The notes below the pieces were generated by a model. The model had not been told where the DNA came from, searched no databases, and worked only from the letters and a program-made list of their open reading frames with translations. From Bacteroidales bacterium (GTDB lineage: Bacteria; Bacteroidota; Bacteroidia; Bacteroidales; UBA10428), in NCBI GenBank assembly GCA_016936215.1, contig JAFGPL010000007.1, positions 12,448 through 76,447 of the forward strand: 64,000 nt of DNA, written 5' to 3'. The translations under genes and the position numbers were made by a program. Shown piece by piece: positions 4,938 to 62,400 of this stretch. How positions within the stretch are numbered: the first letter of the stretch is position 1; every line of letters begins with the position of its first letter.

Positions 4938-5855
4938 ATGCCTTTAAATATTCCAGATAAGCTTCCGGCAGTGGAAATCCTGCAGGATGAAAATATTTTT
5001 GTGATGGGGGAGACCAGGGCTACGCATCAGGATATACGACCGATGCAGATTATTATATTGAACCTCATGCCGTTAAAAATTACTACCGAGACACATATTT
5101 TAAGGTTGTTGTCCAACACCCCGTTGCAGGTAGAAGTGATTTTGCTTCATACGAGGGAACATATTTCCAAACATACACCTATTGAACACCTCCAGACTTT
5201 TTATAAAACCTTTAATGAGGTTAAGGACAGGAAGTTTGATGGTATGATTATTACCGGGGCCCCTATTGAACACCTCGAATTTGAACAGGTTGATTACTGG
5301 AGAGAGCTTCAGGATATAATGGATTGGGTAAAGGTAAATGTGACATCTACCATGTTTATTTGCTGGGGCGCCCAGGCTGGATTGTACCATTATTACGGTA
5401 TTCCAAAATACAAGCTGTCTTCAAAAATGTTTGGGGTATTTAATCATCACATCAATAATCCGAAAATACCCCTTATCCGGGGCTTTGATGAAGAATTTCA
5501 GGCACCCCATTCACGGCATACCGAAGTGCGGCGAAGCGATATTGAAAAAGTGCCTGAACTTGAAATTGTTGCTGAATCGGACGAAGCAGGTGTGTATATG
5601 GTGATGACAAAAGACGGAAGACAGATATTTGTAACCGGTCATTCCGAGTACGATCCTTCAACACTGAAAGAGGAGTATGAACGTGACCTGAAAAAAGGCC
5701 TGCCCATTGAGATTCCAAAAAACTATTATCCTGAAGATAACCCCTCTCTTATGCCGAAGGTAAGATGGAAGAGCCACGCAAACCTGTTATATTATAACTG
5801 GCTCAATTACTACGTTTACCAGATGACCCCCTATAATATAAACGAAATAAAATAG
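4938..5855 (+). CDS. metA: homoserine O-acyltransferase (MetA family)
   Basis: The N-terminus [23 protein letters not shown] and the motifs ILNLMP, ITGAP and CWGAQA are typical of MetA. Length is 305 aa. Confidence 0.9.
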
Positions 5856-6066
5856 TTAGATTATTGAGTATATTAAAATATTGGTGTATCTTTGCGCGAA
5901 ATAATTCCTTATTAAAGCCAAAGACTTTAAATCCTATTCTATCTTTTCCTAAAACTTATCAACAATCCCGTTTTTTTTAAGATATTTTATCTTGTTATTT
6001 GTTATCAGCGTTTTAGACTGAAATAAATGATTTTTATCAATTGAATATTTTGACCAATTTATCATT

Positions 6067-6690
6067 TTGAACAATATAGGGGTTATGAATGATTTGCACG
6101 TGAATATTATAATATCTTATTTTGAACCGAAAAAAATTGACTATATGAATTGTTTCACAGAGGTTATTTGTCCGGAGGCTTATCCTGCCATTAAGGAGCA
6201 TTTTACATTTCAGGAAGAATTTAATCAGAGAGAGTATTACGACATCAGGTACATGGTTGCCCATTCATCTTCCAATGGTACTGAAGTCATCAGGCCTGAT
6301 AGCGCCGAACAACCCGTAATATACGATTGGAGCGATAAAATCATTCTTATTGCCGAGGATGAAGAAACAAATTACCTGTTTCTGAAAGCTGCCCTGGCCA
6401 GAACAAATGCTGCTATTATCTGGGCTAAAAATGGTCAGGAAGCTGTTGATGCTGTAAAACACCATCCTGAAATTGATGTTGTACTCATGGATATCAAAAT
6501 GCCTGTTATGAATGGTGTTGATGCAACAAGAATTATCAGGGAACTTGACAGGGAAAAAATAGTGATCGCGCAAACAGCCTATATTTCTGAAAAAGACCGG
6601 TTGACCTATATGGAAGCCGGGTGCAATGATTTTCTTGCAAAACCCATTACACGTGACAGGTTGTTAAGAATGATTTCACAATATATATAA
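6067..6690 (+). CDS. orphan response regulator (receiver domain only); start uncertain
   Basis: The C-terminal ~120 aa, ILIAEDEETNY...VVLMDIKMPVMNG...AKPI, form a CheY-like receiver. The first ~90 aa were not recognised. An alternative in-frame ATG lies at 6253. Confidence 0.65.
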   Translation: MNNIGVMNDLHVNIIISYFEPKKIDYMNCFTEVICPEAYPAIKEHFTFQEEFNQREYYDIRYMVAHSSSNGTEVIRPDSAEQPVIYDWSDKIILIAEDEETNYLFLKAALARTNAAIIWAKNGQEAVDAVKHHPEIDVVLMDIKMPVMNGVDATRIIRELDREKIVIAQTAYISEKDRLTYMEAGCNDFLAKPITRDRLLRMISQYI

Positions 6691-32496: not shown

Positions 32497-32915
32497 AATG
32501 CACCGCTAAGACGCCAAGACGCGAAGATGAAATGGTAACTTCCTTTTTCGCGTCTTTGCGACTTAGCGGTAAAATTAAGAATGATGAAACAATAATGCAC
32601 TACCAGAACGCAAAGATAAAAATAGTGTCATGTCAATTGTCATACTGAACAAAGTGAAGAACATATTTCACGACCTAAGGGAGTAACTTTTCTCACGACT
32701 GAAAGGAGTAATCTTTATTCTTGAAATACAGATGTTTCGCTATCGCTCAACATGACAAAAGATGCTTGACTTGACACTAGGACTTTCTTTTTCGCGTCTT
32801 TGCGACTTAGCGGTTAAAATTAAACTGATGAAAGAATAATGCACCGCTTAGACACCAGGACGCAAAGATGAAATGGGAACTTCCTATATCGCGTCTTTGC
32901 GGCTTAGCGGTTAAT
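32497..32915. repeat. three tandem ~100-bp hairpin units; the middle unit is interrupted by a nested element
   Basis: Unit: ATAATGCACCGCTAAGACGCCAAGACGCGAAG...TTCGCGTCTTTGCGACTTAGCGGT, with inverted arms. Copies lie at about 32497-32580, 32592-32622 plus 32780-32835, and 32836-32915. Confidence 0.8.
32623..32779. mobile_element. MITE-like element nested in the loop of the middle hairpin unit
   Basis: Terminal inverted repeats TAGTGTCATGTCAA / TTGACTTGACACTA match at 13 of 14 positions. Internal boxes TTGTCATACTGAAC and TTCGCTATCGCTCAACATGACAAA are shared with the elements at 1789, 2793 and 63659. Confidence 0.65.
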
Positions 32916-45116: not shown

Positions 45117-46079
45117 ATGAAACCTGTTAAATATGCACTGCTGACTATTTTGACATTATTGCTTTTCATATTTTCATGCTCAAATGAAAAAACAGTATAT
45201 ATTTTTACCTCCTTTCGCGAACCAGCAAACGAAGGATTGCGATTATTATACAGCCATGACGGTTACAACTGGCACCGGATAGATACCGTCTTCCTGAAAC
45301 CCGGTGTCGGTGCTCAGATAGTTATGCGCGACCCCTCCATTGTTCGGGGACCTGACGGTGTTTTTCACCTTGTGTGGACCTCCTCATGGAAAGGTGACCT
45401 GGGCTTTGGATATGCGAACTCAAAAGATTTAATACACTGGTCAGAACAGAAATTCATTCCGGTAATGGAATTCGATACCACCACGGTGAATGTCTGGGCG
45501 CCTGAACTGTTTTACGATGATGAAAAAGATGAATTTATCATTATCTGGGCATCTACCATCCCTTTTAAGTTTGAAAAAGGAATTGAGGATGAGTATAATA
45601 ACCACAGAATGTATTATACAGTTACCAGGGATTTTGAAACCTTTTCACCGGCCAGTCTCTTTCTCGACCCGGGCTTCAGTGTAATTGATGCTGTGATTGT
45701 AAAAAGAGAAAAAAACGATTATGTGCTTGTACTTAAAGACAATACACGTCCGGAACGCAATCTGAAAGTTGCTTTTGGTAACACGGCACTTGGTCCTTAC
45801 AGCGGTATTTCCCCGGCTTTCACCGATACCTTTACCGAAGGACCGACAGTGGTTAAAATTGAAGATGAATGGCTCATCTATTTCGATGCATACAGAGAAA
45901 AGTGTTACGGGGCTGTAAAAACAAAAGATTTTGTATCTTTTACAGATATTTCAGATGTTATCATTATTCCTGAAGGACATAAGCATGGGACGATTTTCAA
46001 GGTAGAAAAGAAAGTTTTAAAGAAATTGTTGAAGAAGATTGAGGAAAAGGCTAAGGCTAAGGCTGAGGAAAAGGAATAG
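45117..46079 (+). CDS. five-bladed beta-propeller glycoside hydrolase, GH43-like
   Basis: Lipoprotein signal (IFSCSNE) and motifs MRDPSIVRGPDGVFHLVWT, VWAPELFYD and TEGPTVVK. The 3' end (KAKAKAEEKE) runs into the hexamer repeat arm. Confidence 0.6.
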   Translation: MKPVKYALLTILTLLLFIFSCSNEKTVYIFTSFREPANEGLRLLYSHDGYNWHRIDTVFLKPGVGAQIVMRDPSIVRGPDGVFHLVWTSSWKGDLGFGYANSKDLIHWSEQKFIPVMEFDTTTVNVWAPELFYDDEKDEFIIIWASTIPFKFEKGIEDEYNNHRMYYTVTRDFETFSPASLFLDPGFSVIDAVIVKREKNDYVLVLKDNTRPERNLKVAFGNTALGPYSGISPAFTDTFTEGPTVVKIEDEWLIYFDAYREKCYGAVKTKDFVSFTDISDVIIIPEGHKHGTIFKVEKKVLKKLLKKIEEKAKAKAEEKE

Positions 46080-46631
46080 ATATTGGATAAAGCCCTGAAT
46101 TAAAGATTAAAAATATATAATTTGAATGTCATATAAGGATTTTACTGAAATGTCAGTCTGGCAAAAGGCATTTAAACTTTTGCTTAGAATTTATGATTTA
46201 ACCAAAAAATTTCCAAAGGAAGAAAAATATGGAATTATAGATAATACCAGAAGGGCTGCTAATTCTGTTACAAACAATATTGCTGAAGGCTTTGGAAGGT
46301 ATGAAAAATATGATAAAACACGGTTTTATAAAATATCCAGGGGAAGTGCATATGAGATAGTTAATCAGATAATGGTTTCTCATGCCTTAAGTTATATTAA
46401 CAATTTAGAAAATGAAGAATTGATCAAAAGTTACAAAGAAGTTATCGAAGAACTAGATATGATGATTAAATCCCTGGAAACATCAGACAGAAAACGAACC
46501 AGATATTAAAATAGTCTAAATCATGAAAATTATCAGGAGAATTTTAAATCTTTTTATAATATTTTTTCAATATTCTCAGAATAATATCCGTCATCTTAGC
46601 CTCAGCCTTAGCCTCAGCCTTAGCCTTAACC
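46047..46631. other. cassette A: a four-helix-bundle gene bracketed by inverted hexamer-repeat arms
   Basis: The left arm (AAGGCT)x3 GAGG at 46047-46068 and the right arm (CTTAGC/CTCAGC)x6 at 46595-46630 are reverse complements of each other. Confidence 0.7.
46126..46509 (+). CDS. four-helix-bundle protein (23S rRNA intervening-sequence protein family)
   Basis: 127 aa. The pattern VWQKAFKLLLRIYDLTKKFPKEEKYGIIDNTRRAANSVTNNIAEGFGRY...SRGSAYE is the hallmark of this family. Confidence 0.85.
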   Translation: MSYKDFTEMSVWQKAFKLLLRIYDLTKKFPKEEKYGIIDNTRRAANSVTNNIAEGFGRYEKYDKTRFYKISRGSAYEIVNQIMVSHALSYINNLENEELIKSYKEVIEELDMMIKSLETSDRKRTRY

Positions 46632-52953: not shown

Positions 52954-54010
52954 TTTTTTGTTTATTCTTATATTAATTTCCTGTACAGATGATATTTCAT
53001 ACAGAGAAGGTATTGTTCTTGAAGAATTTATCTACGACACTGCCTCATTTCCATCTTGTCATGCCGCAACACTTGCTGAAACACCTGAAGGCCTTGTTGC
53101 AGCATGGTTTGGTGGGACATATGAACGGCATCCGGATGTTTGCATTTATATCAGCAGAAAGGTTAATGACAAATGGTCAGCGCCAGTTAATGTTGCTGAC
53201 GGGATTATAGATGATACGTTACGTTACCCTACATGGAACCCGGTTCTCTTTCAGATTCCCGGTGGAGACCTGATGCTGTTTTATAAGATCGGGCCCAGCC
53301 CTTCCACATGGTGGGGAATGTTGAAGACCTCGTCCGATAACGGTAAGACATGGAGCATTGCAAAAAAGTTACCCGAAGGGTATATCGGCCCTGTAAAAAA
53401 TAAACCTGTGTTGCTTGAAGACAACAGTTTAATCTGTCCTTCAAGTACCGAAGGGGACGGATGGAAAGTCCATTTTGAAATGACTACAGATTTTGGAACG
53501 ACATGGGAAAAAACAAACCCGATTAACGATGGAAAAATCTACAATATCATTCAGCCTTCTATACTCATTCACAAAAACGGCAATCTTCAGATCCTTTGCC
53601 GTAGCAGAAATGCTGTGCTTGCCACTTCATGGTCGAAAGACAATGGCCTTACCTGGTCGCTTGTGCAGGAATCAGGGCTTCCGAACAACAATTCGGGCAC
53701 CGATGCGGTTTCACTCGCCGATGGCAGGTACCTGGTTGTATACAATCATGTTAAAACCCCGCAAAATGCCCCAAAAGGTTACCGAACTCCTTTGAATGTT
53801 GCGCTTTCAAATGACGGTATAAAATGGTTCGCATCACTCATGCTCGAAGACTCCGAAATCAGCCAGTATTCATATCCTTCTGTAATCCAGTCTGCTGATG
53901 GGTTGGTTCATATAGTTTATACCTGGCGAAGGGAGAAGATTAAATATGTAAAAATAGATCCGCGCAAAATGAAAATGAAAGAAATAATCAATGAGAAATG
54001 GCCGGATTAG
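52934..54010 (+). CDS. sialidase-fold (BNR repeat) exo-glycosidase-like lipoprotein
   Basis: Lipobox ILISCTDD and four Asp-boxes: SSDNGKTWS, TTDFGTTWE, SKDNGLTWS, LSNDGIKWF. It overlaps the GH78 stop by 20 nt, or 29 nt if TTG 52925 is the start. Confidence 0.8.
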   Translation: MLHKLFNFLFILILISCTDDISYREGIVLEEFIYDTASFPSCHAATLAETPEGLVAAWFGGTYERHPDVCIYISRKVNDKWSAPVNVADGIIDDTLRYPTWNPVLFQIPGGDLMLFYKIGPSPSTWWGMLKTSSDNGKTWSIAKKLPEGYIGPVKNKPVLLEDNSLICPSSTEGDGWKVHFEMTTDFGTTWEKTNPINDGKIYNIIQPSILIHKNGNLQILCRSRNAVLATSWSKDNGLTWSLVQESGLPNNNSGTDAVSLADGRYLVVYNHVKTPQNAPKGYRTPLNVALSNDGIKWFASLMLEDSEISQYSYPSVIQSADGLVHIVYTWRREKIKYVKIDPRKMKMKEIINEKWPD

Positions 54011-54484
54011 CCACCAAATCACGAAAACACTAAATAACACCAAAATGATAAAAAAGAGTTTTGCACCAATTCCGGCAGAATTAGACAAAATAGGAAGAAA
54101 AATAGTAGATGCCGCATATATAATACACAAGAATCTGGGTCCCGGGCTTTTAGAAAAAGTATATGAATTGTGTTTTTGTCATGAGTTAACTAAACGAGGG
54201 CTTACTTATCAAAGACAAAAAGATATACCAATTATTTATGATGGACTTCAGTTTGATGAAGGATTGAGATTGGATGTTTTAGTAGAGGAGCAGGTAATTT
54301 GTGAATTAAAAGCCCTTGAAAATGTAAATCCGGTTTGGGAGGCTCAAGTTCTAAGTCATTTAAAATTAACAAATAAGAGATTGGGTTATCTAATAAATTT
54401 TAATGTGGTTAACATTGGTCATGGTATCAAGAGATTTGTGCTTTAATTTTAGTGTATTATTTTGTGATTTGGAGCTTTGGTGGC
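54010..54484. other. cassette B: a GxxExxY gene bracketed by imperfect inverted repeat arms
   Basis: The left arm GCCACCAAATCACGAAAACACTAAATAACAC (54010-54040) starts at the last base of the upstream stop codon. The right arm AGTGTATTATTTTGTGATTTGGAGCTTTGGTGGC (54451-54484) is its imperfect reverse complement. Confidence 0.6.
54045..54446 (+). CDS. GxxExxY protein (PD-(D/E)XK nuclease-like superfamily)
   Basis: The pattern IVDAAYIIHKNLGPGLLEKVYELCFCHELTKRGL...IYDG...RLDVLVEEQVICELKA...QVLSHLKLTNKRLGYLINF is the family hallmark. Confidence 0.85.
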   Translation: MIKKSFAPIPAELDKIGRKIVDAAYIIHKNLGPGLLEKVYELCFCHELTKRGLTYQRQKDIPIIYDGLQFDEGLRLDVLVEEQVICELKALENVNPVWEAQVLSHLKLTNKRLGYLINFNVVNIGHGIKRFVL

Positions 54485-57057: not shown

Positions 57058-58944
57058 ATGATCCATCAAAAAATCAAACAACTCCTAAACATAATTTTAA
57101 TAATTGCTTTGAGTTTTCCTCTGTTTTCTTTCGAAATATGGGTTTCTCCCGATGGCTGTGACACAAACCCGGGTACCAGGGAAAAACCTTTGGCCACCAT
57201 TCTGATGGCACAACGAAAAGCCAGGGAATTGAGACGGCTGAACGACCCACTTATAAAGGAAGGCATACAGATCATCCTGAAAAATGGAAGATATCAACTC
57301 ACAGAATCACTGATATTCAAGCCCGAAGATTCGGGAGTTGAAACAGGAATAACTGCAGTTAAAGCTGCATCAGGAGCACATCCGGTTATTTGCGGCGGTG
57401 CTCAACTGAAGGGATGGAAAAAAGTTTCGGGAAACATACCCGGTATGCCTAAGGAGGCACAGGGTAAAGTATGGATGGCAGATGCTCCTGCTGTTGGGGG
57501 ACGGATTATTGAATTCCGCCAGATGTGGGTTAATGGTATAAAAGCTATCCGCGCCAGCAACCTGAACGATGGTCCCTTAGACCGCATACTTTCTGTTAAC
57601 ACTGATAAAGAGGAAATGGTTATTCCAATTCCCAAAACCGATATCAAAAACCTTTCGCATCTTGAATTTGTCATTCATCAATGGTGGGCAATTGCCATAC
57701 TGAGGGTTAAAAACATAGAGAAAATGGGCGATAGCGCCCGTATCACTTTTCATCAACCGGAAAGCCGCATAGAATTTGAGCATCCATGGCCGGCGCCGTT
57801 TATTGACAAAGAAAATAACCTGAATGGAAATTCGGCATTTTACCTGGTAAATGCTATTGAACTGTTGAACCAGCCGGGTGAATGGTACCAGGATTTGAGT
57901 AAAGGCAAAGTATTTTACTGGCCCAGGCAGGATGAAGAAATGAGCAAAGCCGATGTTATGGTTCCATATCTCGAAACTATGGTTAAGATTGAAGGTCATA
58001 CTGATTTTCCTGTCTCTCATATTTCATTTATCGGAATAAATTTTGAGCACTCAACCTGGCTCCGGCCTTCACGTGAAGGGCATGTTCCTTTGCAGGCAGG
58101 CTGGTCAATTACCGATGCCTATAAGCTAAAAATTCCCGGCACTCCGGACAAGGCGGGCCTCGAAAATCAGGCCTGGATCGAACGCCAGCCTGCAGGGATT
58201 ACAGTGCATAATGCAAATAATATCATTTTTGAAAGATGCAGCTTCAGGCATATGGCTGCTACCGGACTTGATTTCATCAGCGGAACGCACAATAACCTGG
58301 TACAAGGTTGTATTTTTAATGATATCGGGGGTACTGCCATACAGATGGGGTTTTTCGGCTCTCCTTCGTTTGAAGCACACCTGCCCTATAATCCGTCAGA
58401 TGAAAGAGAATTGTGCAGGTACGAAACCATTTCCAATAACCTGATAACAGATTGTACCAACGAGGACTGGGGATGTGTTGGCATCAGTGTAGGATTTGCT
58501 CATGATATCAAAATTATTCACAACGAAGTAAGCCATCTGAACTATTCCGGCATCTGTGTTGGCTGGGGATGGACAAAAACCATAACATGTATGAAAAATA
58601 ACCTGGTACATGCCAATTATATTCATCATTTTGCAAAAAATAATTACGATGTGGGAGGTATTTATGCCCTTTCTGCGCAGCCCAATACCGAAATCAGCGA
58701 AAACCGTATTGAGCATCTTGAAAAAGCACCCTATGCACATATCCCTGAACATTATCAATACATCTATCTCGACGAAGGTTCTTCTTATATCAGGGTGTTG
58801 AACAATTGGACAGAGAAAGACAAATTCTTCTCAAACTCACCCGGCCCCGGAAATGAATGGAAAAATAACGGCCCGCAGGTAGATTCGGGGATTAAAGAGA
58901 AAGCAGGGATCAGGAAACAATATCAGGATATTATAAGTAAATAG
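57058..58944 (+). CDS. right-handed parallel beta-helix repeat protein (candidate glycosidase or lyase)
   Basis: The N-terminus IWVSPDGCDTNPGTREKPLATILMAQRKA is typical of beta-helix CAZyme-like proteins. Repeated ...N.I..N.I... coil signatures follow. Length is 628 aa. Confidence 0.55.
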   Translation: MIHQKIKQLLNIILIIALSFPLFSFEIWVSPDGCDTNPGTREKPLATILMAQRKARELRRLNDPLIKEGIQIILKNGRYQLTESLIFKPEDSGVETGITAVKAASGAHPVICGGAQLKGWKKVSGNIPGMPKEAQGKVWMADAPAVGGRIIEFRQMWVNGIKAIRASNLNDGPLDRILSVNTDKEEMVIPIPKTDIKNLSHLEFVIHQWWAIAILRVKNIEKMGDSARITFHQPESRIEFEHPWPAPFIDKENNLNGNSAFYLVNAIELLNQPGEWYQDLSKGKVFYWPRQDEEMSKADVMVPYLETMVKIEGHTDFPVSHISFIGINFEHSTWLRPSREGHVPLQAGWSITDAYKLKIPGTPDKAGLENQAWIERQPAGITVHNANNIIFERCSFRHMAATGLDFISGTHNNLVQGCIFNDIGGTAIQMGFFGSPSFEAHLPYNPSDERELCRYETISNNLITDCTNEDWGCVGISVGFAHDIKIIHNEVSHLNYSGICVGWGWTKTITCMKNNLVHANYIHHFAKNNYDVGGIYALSAQPNTEISENRIEHLEKAPYAHIPEHYQYIYLDEGSSYIRVLNNWTEKDKFFSNSPGPGNEWKNNGPQVDSGIKEKAGIRKQYQDIISK

Positions 58945-59550
58945 GGTTTCCCGCAGATAGCGCAGATAAACGCAGAGGATAATATGGAAAATTCGGAACA
59001 CAGAAAGGATTTGAAAGAAAATGAGATATCTTATCTGATAAGAGGGGCGATATTTAAGGTTTACAACACACTTGGTCCCGGTCTATTGGAATCTGTGTAT
59101 GTTGCAGCTTTGGTTCATGAATTGAAAAAAGAAAATCTGGATGTGAAAACCGAAGTACCGGTACCTGTTATCTATGATAATCAAAAACTGGATTTGGGAT
59201 TTAGATTGGATATTTTGGTAAATGACCTGGTAGTTATTGAAGTAAAATCAATTGAACAACTTACTGAAGTTCATCATAAAATTGTATTAACCTATCTGAA
59301 AATTGCAAACAAGAAACTTGCACTTTTAGTTAATTTTAATTCTGAAAACATTGAAAAAAGTATTTTCAGAAAAGTAAATAACTTATAATCATTAAATTAT
59401 GTCAATTAACTGTGTTATGAAAATATCATCTGCGAATATCTGCGCCATCTGCGGGAAACCTCTTTTAACAACATTTGCGAAAATCCGCGCCATCTGCGGG
59501 AAACCTTTTTTGACAACTTCTGCGTCAATTTGCGCCATCTGCGGGAAACC
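58945..59550. other. cassette C: a GxxExxY gene with one left arm and three tandem right arms
   Basis: The left arm GGTTTCCCGCAGATAGCGCAGATAAACGCAGA (58945-58976) begins one base after the upstream stop. Right arms at 59429-59460, 59474-59505 and 59519-59550 have 45-nt periodicity. The first right arm (59429-59460) matches the reverse complement of the left arm at about 29 of 32 positions; the second and third arms are more divergent. Confidence 0.75.
58984..59388 (+). CDS. GxxExxY protein (PD-(D/E)XK nuclease-like superfamily), second copy
   Basis: It shows the same hallmark as the first copy: IRGAIFKVYNTLGPGLLESVYVAALVHELKKENL...IYDN...RLDILVNDLVVIEVKS...VLTYLKIANKKLALLVNF. Confidence 0.85.
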   Translation: MENSEHRKDLKENEISYLIRGAIFKVYNTLGPGLLESVYVAALVHELKKENLDVKTEVPVPVIYDNQKLDLGFRLDILVNDLVVIEVKSIEQLTEVHHKIVLTYLKIANKKLALLVNFNSENIEKSIFRKVNNL

Positions 59551-60232
59551 TCTTATCTTACATTCGCTAAAGTTTTCATTAATTTTTTTATTTCTATTTA
59601 ACGGATATTTAACCTCATTTTCCCAATCAAAAAACCCCTACCTGAACTTCAGTGAAGATTATACAAATGTAATCACAGCCAGGTCTGCAAAGATTGTGAA
59701 TACGCTCGATATTGCCGATTCAATGAAATATTACCGGGTTCTTTCGATAATTGTGGAACAATACCGGAACCTAAGCGCTACCCACGATTTTAAAGACGCG
59801 CTCATTAAGCAAAAAAAAGATCAGAATATTACCGATAAAGATGCACAAATTAATTCGGTAAAAGATTCTGCCAATGCCGCGCTCTATCTTATGCATGCCC
59901 GTTTTCTTGCTGTCCTCGCTTCAGAGTTGGATGCAAACCAAATAGAAAAGGTTAAAGATGGAATGACCTATAACGTTATGCACAACACCTACAATGCTTT
60001 TCTGGATATGTTGCCCGAACTCACCGGGGATCAGAAACGATACATCTATACAGCCCTCTATGAAGCACGTGAGCTGGCTATGGACGAAAGTTCTTCAAAA
60101 GCAAAGCATGCCATGTTTGGAAAATACAAAGGCCGTATCAACAACTATCTGAGCGCCCAGGGATATGACCTTGCCAAACGAAGCAAGGAATGGCAAGAAA
60201 GATTGAAAAATGAAGACAAAAGCAAGGAATAA
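59399..60232 (+). CDS. exported protein, DUF3826-like (tentative); its N-terminus is encoded by the cassette C repeat arms
   Basis: The mature part (ARSAKIVNTLDI...LYEARELAMDESSSKAKHAMFGKYKGRINNYL) resembles DUF3826 proteins common in pectin loci. The only in-frame starts (59399, 59420) lie upstream of three ICAICGKP-encoding repeats. Confidence 0.5.
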   Translation: MSINCVMKISSANICAICGKPLLTTFAKIRAICGKPFLTTSASICAICGKPLILHSLKFSLIFLFLFNGYLTSFSQSKNPYLNFSEDYTNVITARSAKIVNTLDIADSMKYYRVLSIIVEQYRNLSATHDFKDALIKQKKDQNITDKDAQINSVKDSANAALYLMHARFLAVLASELDANQIEKVKDGMTYNVMHNTYNAFLDMLPELTGDQKRYIYTALYEARELAMDESSSKAKHAMFGKYKGRINNYLSAQGYDLAKRSKEWQERLKNEDKSKE

Positions 60233-60257
60233 TCTGAATGCCGGACATTTATTAGTT

Positions 60258-60504
60258 TTACTTTGTGGTACTTTGTGTTTTTATGCCCCCGCCTGCCAAA
60301 GCAAAGCGGCGGGCAGGTTGGTGGCTAGCAAATAACCTTTTAAACGCTTTATAAGAAAATGCAGATGAATAAAAAAAAGAAATCATTGGTGACCGGGCAA
60401 AATAAAAAAATGCCACAAAGACTCAAAAACTCAAAGTCTCACAAAGTGTAACGTTTTATGGATCTATTCTTTGTGATTTCTTGGTGACTTGGTGATTTGG
60501 TGGC
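60258..60504. repeat. gene-less composite of repeat arms
   Basis: TTACTTTGTGGTACTTTGTG (60258-60277) and CCACAAAG...CACAAAGTG (60413-60448) are inverted relative to each other. Between them lies a GC-rich hairpin-like box, CCGCCTGCC...GGCGGGCAGG. A cassette-B-type arm, TTGTGATTTCTTGGTGACTTGGTGATTTGGTGGC, follows at 60471-60504. Confidence 0.6.
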
Positions 60505-60604
60505 AAAAATATTTATTAAAATAAACTCTGTTATAAACAATAATCTCGAAATGTACCTTATTCTTTGATTTTCATACAAGTAAAAATAATTTATCCGTTC
60601 AGTA

Positions 60605-61720
60605 ATGAAAAAAAATATTATAGTCATGTGGTTGTTATCACTTATCTTCTCATTGGGTTGTCATCAGCAACCTGAGATAGTTTCCGAAGAAATCATGCAG
60701 AAAATCTATGAGGAAGTAAAAACCCCTTATAAATACGGGCTTGTTCTTGTTCCCGACAGCAACGCATACAAGATGGATTGTCCCACCATCTTCAGGAAAG
60801 ATAACACCTGGTGGATGACGTATATTGTCTTCGATGGCCGCGGCTATGAAACCTGGCTGGCAGAAAGCAAAAATTTCCTCGACTGGAAGATCAATGGGAA
60901 AATAATGCAATTCAGCGATTCAGCCGACTGGGACATGAACCAGAAAGCCGGTTATCCGTCATTAATTAATTATGAATGGGGTGGGGATTACAAAATAAAT
61001 CAATACGATGACAAATACTGGATGAGCTATTTCGGAGGTAATTCCACAGGGTATGAAAAAGGACTATTATCCATCGGGATGGCCTTTACAGAATACAATC
61101 CTGCTACCGTCCATGAATGGAAGAGGTTGCAAAAACCGGTGCTGACATCACATGACGAAGATGTCCGGTGGTACGATAACAGCACGATGTACAAAAGCTT
61201 TGTAATGGAAGATAAAAAAAGACATACCGGACACCGGTTTGTAATGTACTACAACGCACGCGGCGATAGCCTGAATCCAAAACGGGGGGCCGAACGCATC
61301 AGCATGGCCGTATCTGATGATATGGTTAACTGGAAGCGATTTGGCAATGAACCGATTGTTAATCATCATGTGGGAATCTCGGGTGATGCAGTAATTCAAA
61401 AGATTGATGATGTATATGTAATGTTTTACTTCCGTGCCAACTGGCCCGATGGCAAAACAGTGGTTTACAACAGTTTTTACTGTTCATACGATCTCATTAA
61501 CTGGACAGAATGGAACGGGCCTCATCTTATCGAACCGACTGAAACATACGATGCACTTTTTGCCCATAAATCATATGTGATAAAACATAATGGAGTGGTG
61601 TATCATTTTTACAATGCGGTTGACAAACAGGGAAACAGGGGTATCGCATTGGCTGCATCTGTAGACCTTGGCATAAGTAATACTCATTTTAAATCTGACC
61701 AGGAATCTGAAATTAAATAA
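60605..61720 (+). CDS. beta-propeller glycoside-hydrolase-like lipoprotein (GH43/GH32/GH130-type fold; family unresolved)
   Basis: Lipobox IFSLGCHQ and repeated blade-like segments (NTWWMTYIVFDG, KYWMSYFGG, RFVMYYNARG, VYVMFYFRAN, VVYHFYNAV). Confidence 0.45.
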   Translation: MKKNIIVMWLLSLIFSLGCHQQPEIVSEEIMQKIYEEVKTPYKYGLVLVPDSNAYKMDCPTIFRKDNTWWMTYIVFDGRGYETWLAESKNFLDWKINGKIMQFSDSADWDMNQKAGYPSLINYEWGGDYKINQYDDKYWMSYFGGNSTGYEKGLLSIGMAFTEYNPATVHEWKRLQKPVLTSHDEDVRWYDNSTMYKSFVMEDKKRHTGHRFVMYYNARGDSLNPKRGAERISMAVSDDMVNWKRFGNEPIVNHHVGISGDAVIQKIDDVYVMFYFRANWPDGKTVVYNSFYCSYDLINWTEWNGPHLIEPTETYDALFAHKSYVIKHNGVVYHFYNAVDKQGNRGIALAASVDLGISNTHFKSDQESEIK

Positions 61721-61731
61721 AATCAAATATT

Positions 61732-62400
61732 ATGACTAAAGTTTTTGCCGTTCATACTGCACTGGCATTGGCAGAGCCAATTACTGCCCTGTTCAGGGAA
61801 CATCTTTCAGATGTAAAATTAAACCATATCGTTGATGACAGCCTTATTCAGGAGGTTATCGCCAACAATACTGTGACCCCGAATGTTGCTAAACGGCTGG
61901 TCAATTGTTTTCATTTGGCTGTGGATGCAGGGGCAGATATTATTTTTAACACATGTTCATCAGTGGGAGAAATAGCCCGTATCGCAAGAAACCTGGTACC
62001 TGTGCCGATAATAAAAATTGATGACGCAATGGCCATAAAAGCCGTTGAATTATCCGGCAGGATAGGGGTTATTGCTACTTTACCTTCAACATTGTTGCCA
62101 ACTGTGAACCTGCTTAAAATGATGGCTGCTGAGGTGAACAAAAAAATTGAAGTGGTTGAAGGTTTGGCCGAAGGAGCTTTTCAGGCTGTGATGTCAGGCG
62201 ACCGGGATACGCATGATGACCTTATCCTCAAAGCTTCTGAAAATATTGCCGGAAAGGTTGATTTGATTGTCCTGGCACAGGGTTCAATGGCAAGAATGGA
62301 ACAGAAATTGGCCGAAGTTACTGGGAAAACAGTTCTATCGAGCCCGCTTTCAGGAGTTTTGGCGGTGAAGGATTATATCAGAAAAAATATTATTAAATAA
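61732..62400 (+). CDS. Asp/Glu/hydantoin racemase family protein
   Basis: 222 aa with the two half-site motifs IFNTCSSVG and IVLAQGSMA. Confidence 0.7.
   Translation: MTKVFAVHTALALAEPITALFREHLSDVKLNHIVDDSLIQEVIANNTVTPNVAKRLVNCFHLAVDAGADIIFNTCSSVGEIARIARNLVPVPIIKIDDAMAIKAVELSGRIGVIATLPSTLLPTVNLLKMMAAEVNKKIEVVEGLAEGAFQAVMSGDRDTHDDLILKASENIAGKVDLIVLAQGSMARMEQKLAEVTGKTVLSSPLSGVLAVKDYIRKNIIK

Follow-up and report, generated by a model that had tools for sequence, protein, structure and literature searches.

A repeat-armed GxxExxY nuclease cassette with a triplicated right arm between a GH141-like and a DUF3826 gene of a Bacteroidales bacterium

The GIY-YIG nucleases named Ssn cleave the repeats next to their own genes, in the form of ssDNA (Chenal et al. 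2025, PMC11893778). The locus described here lies in a 64,000-nt stretch of Bacteroidales DNA (contig JAFGPL010000007.1; the whole stretch is called the window in the following) and resembles the Ssn/NTS/SRM arrangement (PMC11893778) in several respects: a small stand-alone nuclease gene carries hairpin-forming repeats on one or both sides, gene-less copies of the repeats occur elsewhere in the genome and the repeat sequence varies with the nuclease lineage. The likeness is one of design only. Ssn proteins are GIY-YIG nucleases (cd10448), whereas the protein encoded here is a predicted PD-(D/E)XK nuclease, and its arms are arrays of 7-nt words with a low copy number per genome instead of one defined motif. 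Similarly, the REP/REPIN-RAYT systems (Di Nocera et al. 2013, PMC3733652) share with our locus a single enzyme gene inside inverted palindromic repeats, dispersed gene-less hairpin doublets and tandem arrays, and a repeat type that is specific to the enzyme lineage. However, our locus has no HUH/Y1 (IS200/IS605-like) transposase and no GTAG/CGTC tag, the copies are far fewer and an unrelated cargo, an Avd-like four-helix bundle, is found with the same kind of arms. The ORF-containing intervening sequences (IVS) of the 23S rRNA of Leptospira and Coxiella (PMC4990558) are likewise units of ~400-700 nt that lie within a host transcription unit and hold a small ORF flanked by inverted repeats, and a sister cassette in the window encodes an IVS-type four-helix-bundle protein. 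In contrast to the IVS, the unit studied here is located between a GH141 and a DUF3826 gene and not in an rRNA helix, its arm mismatches carry no signature of RNA pairing and the arrangement of the arms is variable. Repeat DNA with open frames can also be translated within a host protein without destroying this protein, as for Rickettsia palindromic elements and in-frame MITEs. The arms of our locus would likewise form an N-terminal extension of a neighbouring protein, but here only a cleaved leader would change and not the mature protein. We found no published description of a class of repeat-armed GxxExxY cassettes.

The original prediction, made from the sequence of the window, was a cassette with inverted arms and an amplified right arm. 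Our analysis confirms this architecture: a gene for a 125-aa GxxExxY/PF13366 nuclease lies between one left arm and three right-arm units (Table 1). The left arm (GGTTTCCCGCAGATAGCGCAGATAAACGCAGA) begins at 58945, immediately after the TAG stop codon (58942-58944) of the GH141-like ORF, just as predicted, and the right arms expected at 59429, 59474 and 59519 with an exact spacing of 45 nt fall into three direct 45-nt units that are arranged head-to-tail from 59422 to 59556. Each arm is composed of three heptamer words of the CGCAGAT type with a spacing of 9-10 nt and is capped by the tip TTTCCCGCAGAT. The word type is common to both arms, and the gene is thus enclosed by inverted arrays of short words as defined for a repeat-armed cassette. 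The tip and the words of the left arm were also found in the congener G001. We observed three copies of the 16-mer CCATCTGCGGGAAACC on the plus strand and one copy with a single mismatch on the minus strand, within the left arm; by chance 0.4 matches are expected per window, and five were not reached in any of 100 shuffles. Compared to unit 1, unit 2 is 87% and unit 3 is 80% identical. The differences are unevenly distributed: none of the 20 sites of the tip core is variable among the right-arm units, while 12 of the 25 sites outside the core are (p = 3e-4). As the 20-nt tip alone stays invariant in the amplified arm, the tip together with the outer word is the likely functional site. A Logan contig (SRR13394437), which originates from a second assembler, is 100% identical to the window from 58610 to 61732, so the three arms and the ATC codon discussed below are not an artefact of a single assembler.

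Table 1. Features of the cassette and of its neighbours (positions refer to the window)
Feature	Position	Strand	Evidence or remark
GH141-like beta-helix glycoside hydrolase, upstream neighbour	57058-58944	+	Pfam GH141_M 4.5e-66
Left arm	58945-58981	+	tip GGTTTCC, then three CGCAGAT/CGCAGAG words, 9-10-nt spacing; inverted repeats I1-I3
GxxExxY / PDDEXK_3 nuclease gene	59011-59388	+	PF13366 4e-37, TIGR04256 4.9e-38
Candidate DUF3826 start ATG, in-frame	59417-59419	+	9 nt before first right-arm word
Right-arm unit 1, best overall partner of the left arm	59422-59466	+	84% complementary over 44 nt
Right-arm unit 2	59467-59511	+	in-frame TTG 59510 at end; small terminator-like hairpin inside
Right-arm unit 3	59512-59556	+	aligns with the single arm of G001 and L150
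ATC in place of the neighbour's canonical ATG start	59555-59557	+	ATG in G001 and L150, same alignment column
DUF3826 gene	59555-60232	+	PF12875 2.1e-61
Gene-less composite of CACAAAG/CACCAAG-word arms, 3' of DUF3826	60258-60504	.	same repeat class, outside the cassette

The nuclease is read from a family-typical TTG at 59011 (public gene call P0121), while an alternative in-frame ATG at 58984 would give 134 aa. Its score was 127.6 bits for PF13366 (cut-off 22) and 130.1 bits for TIGR04256 (cut-off 35), which passes both curated cut-offs, and PF13366 is its sole Pfam family match. The function of PF13366, a very large family with members in many bacterial phyla and in archaea, is unknown. Under the name PDDEXK_3 it has been listed as a family of unknown function with multiple transfers (Steczkiewicz et al., PMC3424549). 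Among 29 sequences the residues E27, Y30, D67, E77 and K79 were invariant, of which D67, E77 and K79 correspond to the predicted catalytic D...(D/E)xK motif of PD-(D/E)XK nucleases. An AF2 model built from the alignment reached a pLDDT of 94 (single-sequence input gave 35), and the order of its secondary structure elements is as expected for the alpha-beta-beta-beta-alpha-beta fold of PD-(D/E)XK. The best fold matches in the PDB were Cas4 SSO0001, lambda exonuclease and related RecB-type nucleases (E 8e-4 to 0.05, TM 0.5-0.6), the match to Cas4 and lambda exonuclease being a weak one. A search of the PDB by sequence yielded no relative of the nuclease, and neither the nuclease nor the arms had a match in PADLOC, PHROGs or Rfam. 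According to the model the GxxExxY protein is a RecB/Cas4-like member of the PD-(D/E)XK superfamily, i.e. a predicted nuclease. Compared to G001, the gene has a dN/dS of 0.075.

We next consider how widespread cassettes of this kind are. In the genome that contains the window six PF13366 matches were found, each with its own arm word. The pattern C[AG]C-N-[AG]A-N occurred there in 59 word clusters, eight of them of the CGCAGAT type, compared to 13 clusters in a shuffled control; several of the 59 clusters are located at contig ends. For a larger set we collected 61 distinct GxxExxY loci from the bacterial family of the window and from close homologues. Inverted upstream and downstream arms scored above the 99th percentile of a shuffled null in 44 of the 61 loci. 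In 13 of the 61, arm or hairpin units were amplified in tandem at offsets of 45-157 nt, and the 45-nt single-arm unit of the window is the shortest of these. We read the triplicated arm as a tandem duplication specific to this lineage, of a sort that is common in the class, and as a snapshot of arm turnover. Nuclease genes with 80-83% identity to that of the window, carrying the same words and the tip ATCTGCGGGAAA, were found in unrelated contexts (nuoK|nuoL, MlrC|beta-lactamase, GFO/Idh/MocA|hexapeptide transferase and HlyD-like|DUF2147) and with different arrangements of the arms (L-gene-R, [R L]-gene-[R L] and [L R]L-gene-[L R]). A cassette is also present in G000 and G001 at another orthologous site, 5' of a sigma-54 response regulator, where G002 carries just two arm tips ~30 nt apart and a threefold tandem hairpin array. 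The heptamer word tracks the identity of the proteins (rho -0.53), with the same word in 88% of the pairs above 75% identity and in 1% of the pairs below 40%, a correlation that is also expected from simple co-inheritance. Unrelated genes for four-helix-bundle (Avd-like) proteins bear arms of the same kind, one of them being the sister cassette in the window; the words may therefore be read by a protein other than the nuclease.

Several described types of elements were considered for this class. Cut-and-paste transposons with terminal inverted repeats and MITEs were rejected because no consistent target-site duplication was found in 36 loci, where the longest shared flank word had a mean length of 2.9 nt compared to 2.5 nt in shuffled sequences. 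The analogy to integron attC sites was dropped, as arms are present on both sides and the cassettes are solitary. A role of the arms as promoters via Bacteroidetes-like TTTG motifs was also dropped, since the words of the cassette (ATCTGCG) do not contain TTTG. A scan of the genome collection with a 15-nt arm-tip pattern, which is too short for this purpose, returned 120 stretches, most of them chance-like and from unrelated taxa, and only one with a GxxExxY gene next to the match. A metagenome scan with the DUF3826 protein gave no match. What we observe looks like ordinary repeat turnover together with a point mutation in a widespread but poorly described kind of element.

In order to follow the history of the insertion site, orthologous GH141|DUF3826 junctions were drawn from two congeners (G001 and G002) and from public contigs. 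A clean empty junction was found in none of the eight related loci, each of which holds a cassette or a remnant. Cassettes with CGCAGAT words (type Q) occupy the junction in the window, in G001 and in L150. Cassettes with CGCAAAG words (type K), whose nuclease is 48% identical to that of the window, occupy it in G002, L148/L149 and L151; in L151 the left arm is gone, as is the 5' part of the gene. In L152/L153 only the last ~20 nt of the gene are left, and the right arm is shortened by a 21-nt deletion between CTTTG repeats. The window itself is a mosaic, with a cassette like that of the distant congener G001 and flanks like those of L148, a near relative that carries the other type. By sliding identity at the nucleotide level the flanks match L148 at 80-95% and G001 at 55-77% of the positions, whereas the region from 58.9 to 59.6 kb is 83-88% identical to G001 and only ~50% to L148. 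The switch from L148-like to G001-like identity is located at ~58860-58940. The breakpoints lie in the last ~15 codons of the GH141-like gene, which together with its stop codon are inside the segment swapped with the cassette, and ~20 codons into the DUF3826 gene. For the flanks we calculated a dS of 0.64-0.76 against L148 and a saturated pS of 0.64-0.79 against G001, while the cassette gene and its counterpart in G001 show a dS of 0.75 and 88% amino acid identity. The same pattern is seen for a second cassette of the window (54010-54484), with a dS of 0.87 against G001 and of more than 2.4 for its flanks, so nucleotide-level constraint may contribute to the low dS of the cassettes. The incongruence of types Q and K is independent of dS. 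In the DUF3826 tree the groups are {window Q, L148 K, G002 K}, {G001 Q, L151 K} and L150 Q, and from this interleaving of Q and K carriers we conclude that at least two switches of the cassette type took place among the six relatives. Movement between near-identical strains was not seen.

The inverted arms could act as RNA as well as DNA. In a reading modelled on the IVS, the arms would pair in the operon transcript and RNase III would cut the stem, which would free the nuclease mRNA and separate the messages of the neighbours; the extra right arms would then be alternative stems that tune processing or the access to the DUF3826 start. The small ORF between inverted arms, the orientation of all three cassettes of the window along the operon, the protein type encoded by the sister cassette and the precedent of the Coxiella IVS (PMC4990558) are in line with this reading. 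Pairing is also thermodynamically possible with each right arm, which agrees with the part of the original prediction that had proposed a stem-loop with three alternative partners: RNA duplexes of the left arm with units 1, 2 and 3 reached -60.7, -48.4 and -57.2 kcal/mol, compared to -14.4 +/- 3.4 kcal/mol for shuffled arms. The region 58930-59575 folds with -158.8 kcal/mol (z = -4.8), the left arm pairing with arm 3 in the MFE structure or with arm 1 in the centroid structure. However, the kind of mismatch between the arms does not support the RNA model. On the transcribed strand of 44 arm pairs, mismatches compatible with G.U pairing are not in excess over A.C mismatches (45 versus 52, p = 0.54). 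Moreover, the spacers between the words are not complementary (75 A.A and 40 T.T juxtapositions) and are A-rich on the sense strand in both arms, in close homologues the arms sit beside the gene, on one side or on both, as local hairpins and do not pair around it, and neighbouring genes are co-oriented with the cassette in just 64% of the cases, which is about the genomic baseline. Taking the mismatch count, the spacers, the orientation, the lack of an Rfam match and the lack of target-site duplications together, we consider it more likely that the words are constrained as sites in the DNA than that an RNA stem is maintained, and we regard an IVS-like element as rather unlikely.

The right arms extend into the region where translation of the DUF3826 gene is expected to start. 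The encoded protein retains its domain (207.7 bits for PF12875) and the hydrophobic segment, but ATC stands at the canonical start position where the orthologues have ATG. Up to the hydrophobic segment, the DUF3826 frame contains four start-like codons and no others, namely ATG 59399, ATG 59417, TTG 59510 and ATC 59555; from 59556 to the hydrophobic segment there is no ATG, GTG or TTG, as had been stated before for the interval between the last arm and the signal peptide. The earlier suggestion that the gene lost its native start upon arrival of the cassette is not supported. In G001 (L003/L154) and L150 the same type of cassette is present at the same junction, with one right arm followed by an ATG and the N-termini MLQSIKIY... 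(G001) and MLNSIKLY... (L150), and a second G001-like assembly encodes an N-terminus identical to that of G001. G001 also has the left-arm tip GGTTTCCCGCAGAT directly after the GH141 stop, a position at which the L150 sequence is too short. In the K-type carriers G002, L148/L149 and L151 an ATG likewise follows the right arm (MKRIQIYF...). Since carriers of the same type have ATG at the homologous codon, the start of the DUF3826 gene in the window was lost by a later change from G to C, and judging from the aligned sequences the missing start is a point mutation separate from the arm triplication. The codons at the unit ends that correspond to this ATG are TTA 59465, TTG 59510 and ATC 59555, the TTG codon straddling the boundary between units 2 and 3, which suggests that the duplicated 45-nt unit may have included the start position of the neighbour.

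Which start codon is used may be narrowed down by comparison. An equivalent of ATG 59417 exists at the same spacing, 9 nt before the first arm word, in all three type Q carriers (window, G001 and L150); we rejected this conservation as a proof of use because it is not significant with three related lineages. A second candidate, ATG 59399, is located 10 nt past the stop codon of the nuclease gene. Public gene calls place the DUF3826 start at 59417 (271 aa) or at 59399 (277 aa), while the orthologues have 223-224 aa and begin with MKRIQIYF or MLQSIKIY. With the upstream in-frame ATG common to all three carriers, read-through of the arms is plausible, and it is possible on the codons present that the arms are translated as a Cys-rich extension. 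The 45-nt period preserves the reading frame from the upstream ATG. The initiation context of the upstream ATGs is moderate, and an n-region of such length would be unusual in a Sec signal peptide. We give initiation at 59399 or 59417 about an even chance. Initiation at TTG 59510 seems unlikely, as does initiation at ATC 59555, and a gene without meaningful expression appears rather doubtful.

A more specific proposal is that the triplicated arm was recruited as a selected N-terminal module of the DUF3826 protein, either a Cys-rich domain (three CxxC, zinc-knuckle-like) or an extended signal peptide. In favour of this, no stop codon interrupts the frame from ATG 59399/59417 across all three units, the canonical start is gone while the period keeps the frame, the public gene callers include the arms, and there is a weak match to Zn_ribbon_3 (E 6.5e-6; 25.9 bits, below the cut-off of 27 bits). 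In the DUF3826 frame three ICAICGKP repeats had been predicted; this is the reading of units 1 and 3, but unit 2 reads IRAICGKP, so only AICGKP is common to all three. Several observations speak against a selected module. The differences among the right-arm units are mostly non-synonymous, the conservation follows the tip core of the DNA and not the codons, and two to three of the six possible frames run through the arms without a stop codon, one of these frames on the opposite strand. The arm peptide differs between the single-arm carriers (IREICGKHL versus ICAICGKQP), and typical family members have ~224 aa. In addition, the signal peptide extends to ~59623 (...TSFS|QSKNPY), where we propose a putative SPase I site SFS|QS with Q at +1, and all residues before this site would be cleaved off the mature protein. 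By these sequence criteria the peptide encoded by the arms appears to be without protein-level constraint, and the CxxC motifs and the sub-threshold Zn_ribbon_3 match are most simply seen as a probable by-product of the ATCTGCG word in the DUF3826 frame. We consider a functional module quite improbable.

Conversely, the loss of the start codon might have silenced the DUF3826 gene, which would make it a young pseudogene and the triplicated arm irrelevant junk. ATC is a very poor initiator codon, the ATG that it replaces is conserved and the other candidate starts have no strong context. However, the ORF is intact over 224 codons with a dN/dS of 0.10 compared to L148, upstream in-frame ATGs are on hand and the gene is part of an otherwise intact polysaccharide-utilisation cluster, for which reasons we judge silencing to be improbable. 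Switching of DUF3826 or nuclease expression by slipped-strand changes of the arm copy number would be conceivable for a tandem repeat directly 5' of a gene. Species do differ in the number of copies (three versus one), but the units are identical only in the 20-nt core and just 80-87% identical overall, both assemblies contain three copies, and a period that is a multiple of three would not shift the frame. Phase variation seems very unlikely for this repeat.

Based on these data we propose, as a moderately probable account, a DNA-level element composed of a nuclease and its cognate repeats, in which arm turnover, exchange at the junction and a separate loss of the ATG come together. The heptamer words would be the functional units, most likely as binding or cleavage sites, and the GxxExxY nuclease would recognise its own words. 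The arms would be renewed by tandem duplication and then decay. In this group of Bacteroidales the GH141|DUF3826 junction appears to have been occupied for a long time by one of two unrelated types of cassette, with at least two exchanges between the types, for which homologous recombination through the adjacent genes is the probable route. In the lineage of the window, the right arm with ~10 nt of adjoining sequence was presumably triplicated in tandem as a 45-nt unit, and the copies have diverged since then except for the 20-nt tip core. Separately, the canonical ATG of the DUF3826 gene would have mutated to ATC. Its product is most likely translated from ATG 59417 or ATG 59399 with an extension of 46-52 residues that would leave together with the signal peptide upon cleavage; the alternatives would be that TTG 59510 or ATC 59555 initiates weakly or that the gene is poorly expressed.

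More tentatively, the GxxExxY proteins might be sequence-specific PD-(D/E)XK nucleases that read their own flanking words, i.e. a second, independent design of the Ssn/NTS or RAYT/REP kind. Their arms would be rebuilt continually by tandem duplication of whole units, with the triplicated arm as an intermediate. As the inverted repeats reach the stop and the start codon of the neighbours, such a unit could be exchanged as an allele of a fixed gene junction and could donate or destroy the start of a neighbouring gene.

The locus illustrates clearly how cassettes are exchanged at a fixed junction, with two unrelated types and with breakpoints inside the neighbouring genes, and the test of mismatch types speaks for a constraint on the arms as DNA words and against one as an RNA stem. 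For genome annotation it means that gene callers can extend the ORF of a neighbour into such arms (271 or 277 aa compared to the ~224 aa of the family). If the nuclease is word-specific, the family would provide a large natural set of small DNA-recognition enzymes that are programmable by lineage.

In both the window and its counterpart in a congeneric genome (G001), we observed that the inverted repeat of the third cassette does not end at the arm tips but continues for a further ~12–17 nt on either side, entering the region of the GH141 stop codon and that of the DUF3826 start codon (coordinates are listed in the table). The stop and start positions of the neighbouring genes therefore lie inside the symmetry of the element. 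Right-arm unit 2 of this cassette contains a small terminator-like hairpin followed by a T-run, and its variant word ATCCGCG is also present in the single arm of G001.

Coordinates of cassette features, remnants and arm copies
Feature	Locus	Position (nt)	Words or sequence
Third cassette, extension beyond left arm	window	58930-58945	
Third cassette, extension beyond right arm	window	59550-59566	
Third cassette, extended inverted repeat	G001 L154	~5800-6340	
Hairpin in right-arm unit 2	window	59484-59509	CCGCG-CCATC-TGCGG
Truncated K-type cassette	L151	2620-2990	
K-type remnant	L152	1810-1876	
K-type remnant	L153	570-637	
Hairpin of left and right arm	window	32504-32570	CGCTAAG
Extra direct copy of right arm	window	32786-32812	CGCTAAG
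Tandem array	L057	5750-6550	CGCAGAT type
Cassette 2	window	54010-54484	CACCAAA
Cassette A	window	46047-46631	GCTAAG/GCTGAG

At the same GH141/DUF3826 junction, the K-type cassettes form a decay series: in L151 the left arm is absent and the gene is 5'-truncated (87 aa); in L152 and L153 the spacer measures 65 nt and retains the final ~20 nt of the gene, together with a right arm of reduced length. A GxxExxY cassette was also found upstream of a sigma-54 response regulator in the window's own genome (C332) and in G001 (L226/L137); at the corresponding site of a second congener (L225, G002:C109) there are only the two arm tips, ATTTCTCGCAGAT and CTGCGAGAGAAA, with ~30 nt between them, and then a ~107-nt hairpin unit made of CGCAGAC words, present in three tandem copies.

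The window holds a further case of arm duplication, in which the right arm of a CGCTAAG-word hairpin recurs ~244 nt downstream; the GxxExxY gene is absent from this stretch (32504-32812). An array without the gene is likewise present in the distant Bacteroidota genome of Lunatibacter salilacus (L057), where four tandem 172-nt units each carry arms with the tip ATCTGCGGGAAAC.

In G001, cassette 2 is conserved at the corresponding position, with a dS of 0.87 against L154, far below that of the flanking genes (2.4 to >4), and this low dS relative to the flanks is common to cassette 2 and the third cassette. The product of cassette A is a four-helix-bundle protein matching Avd of diversity-generating retroelements (phrog_3206, E 7.8e-9), so that unrelated cargo has the same arm design.
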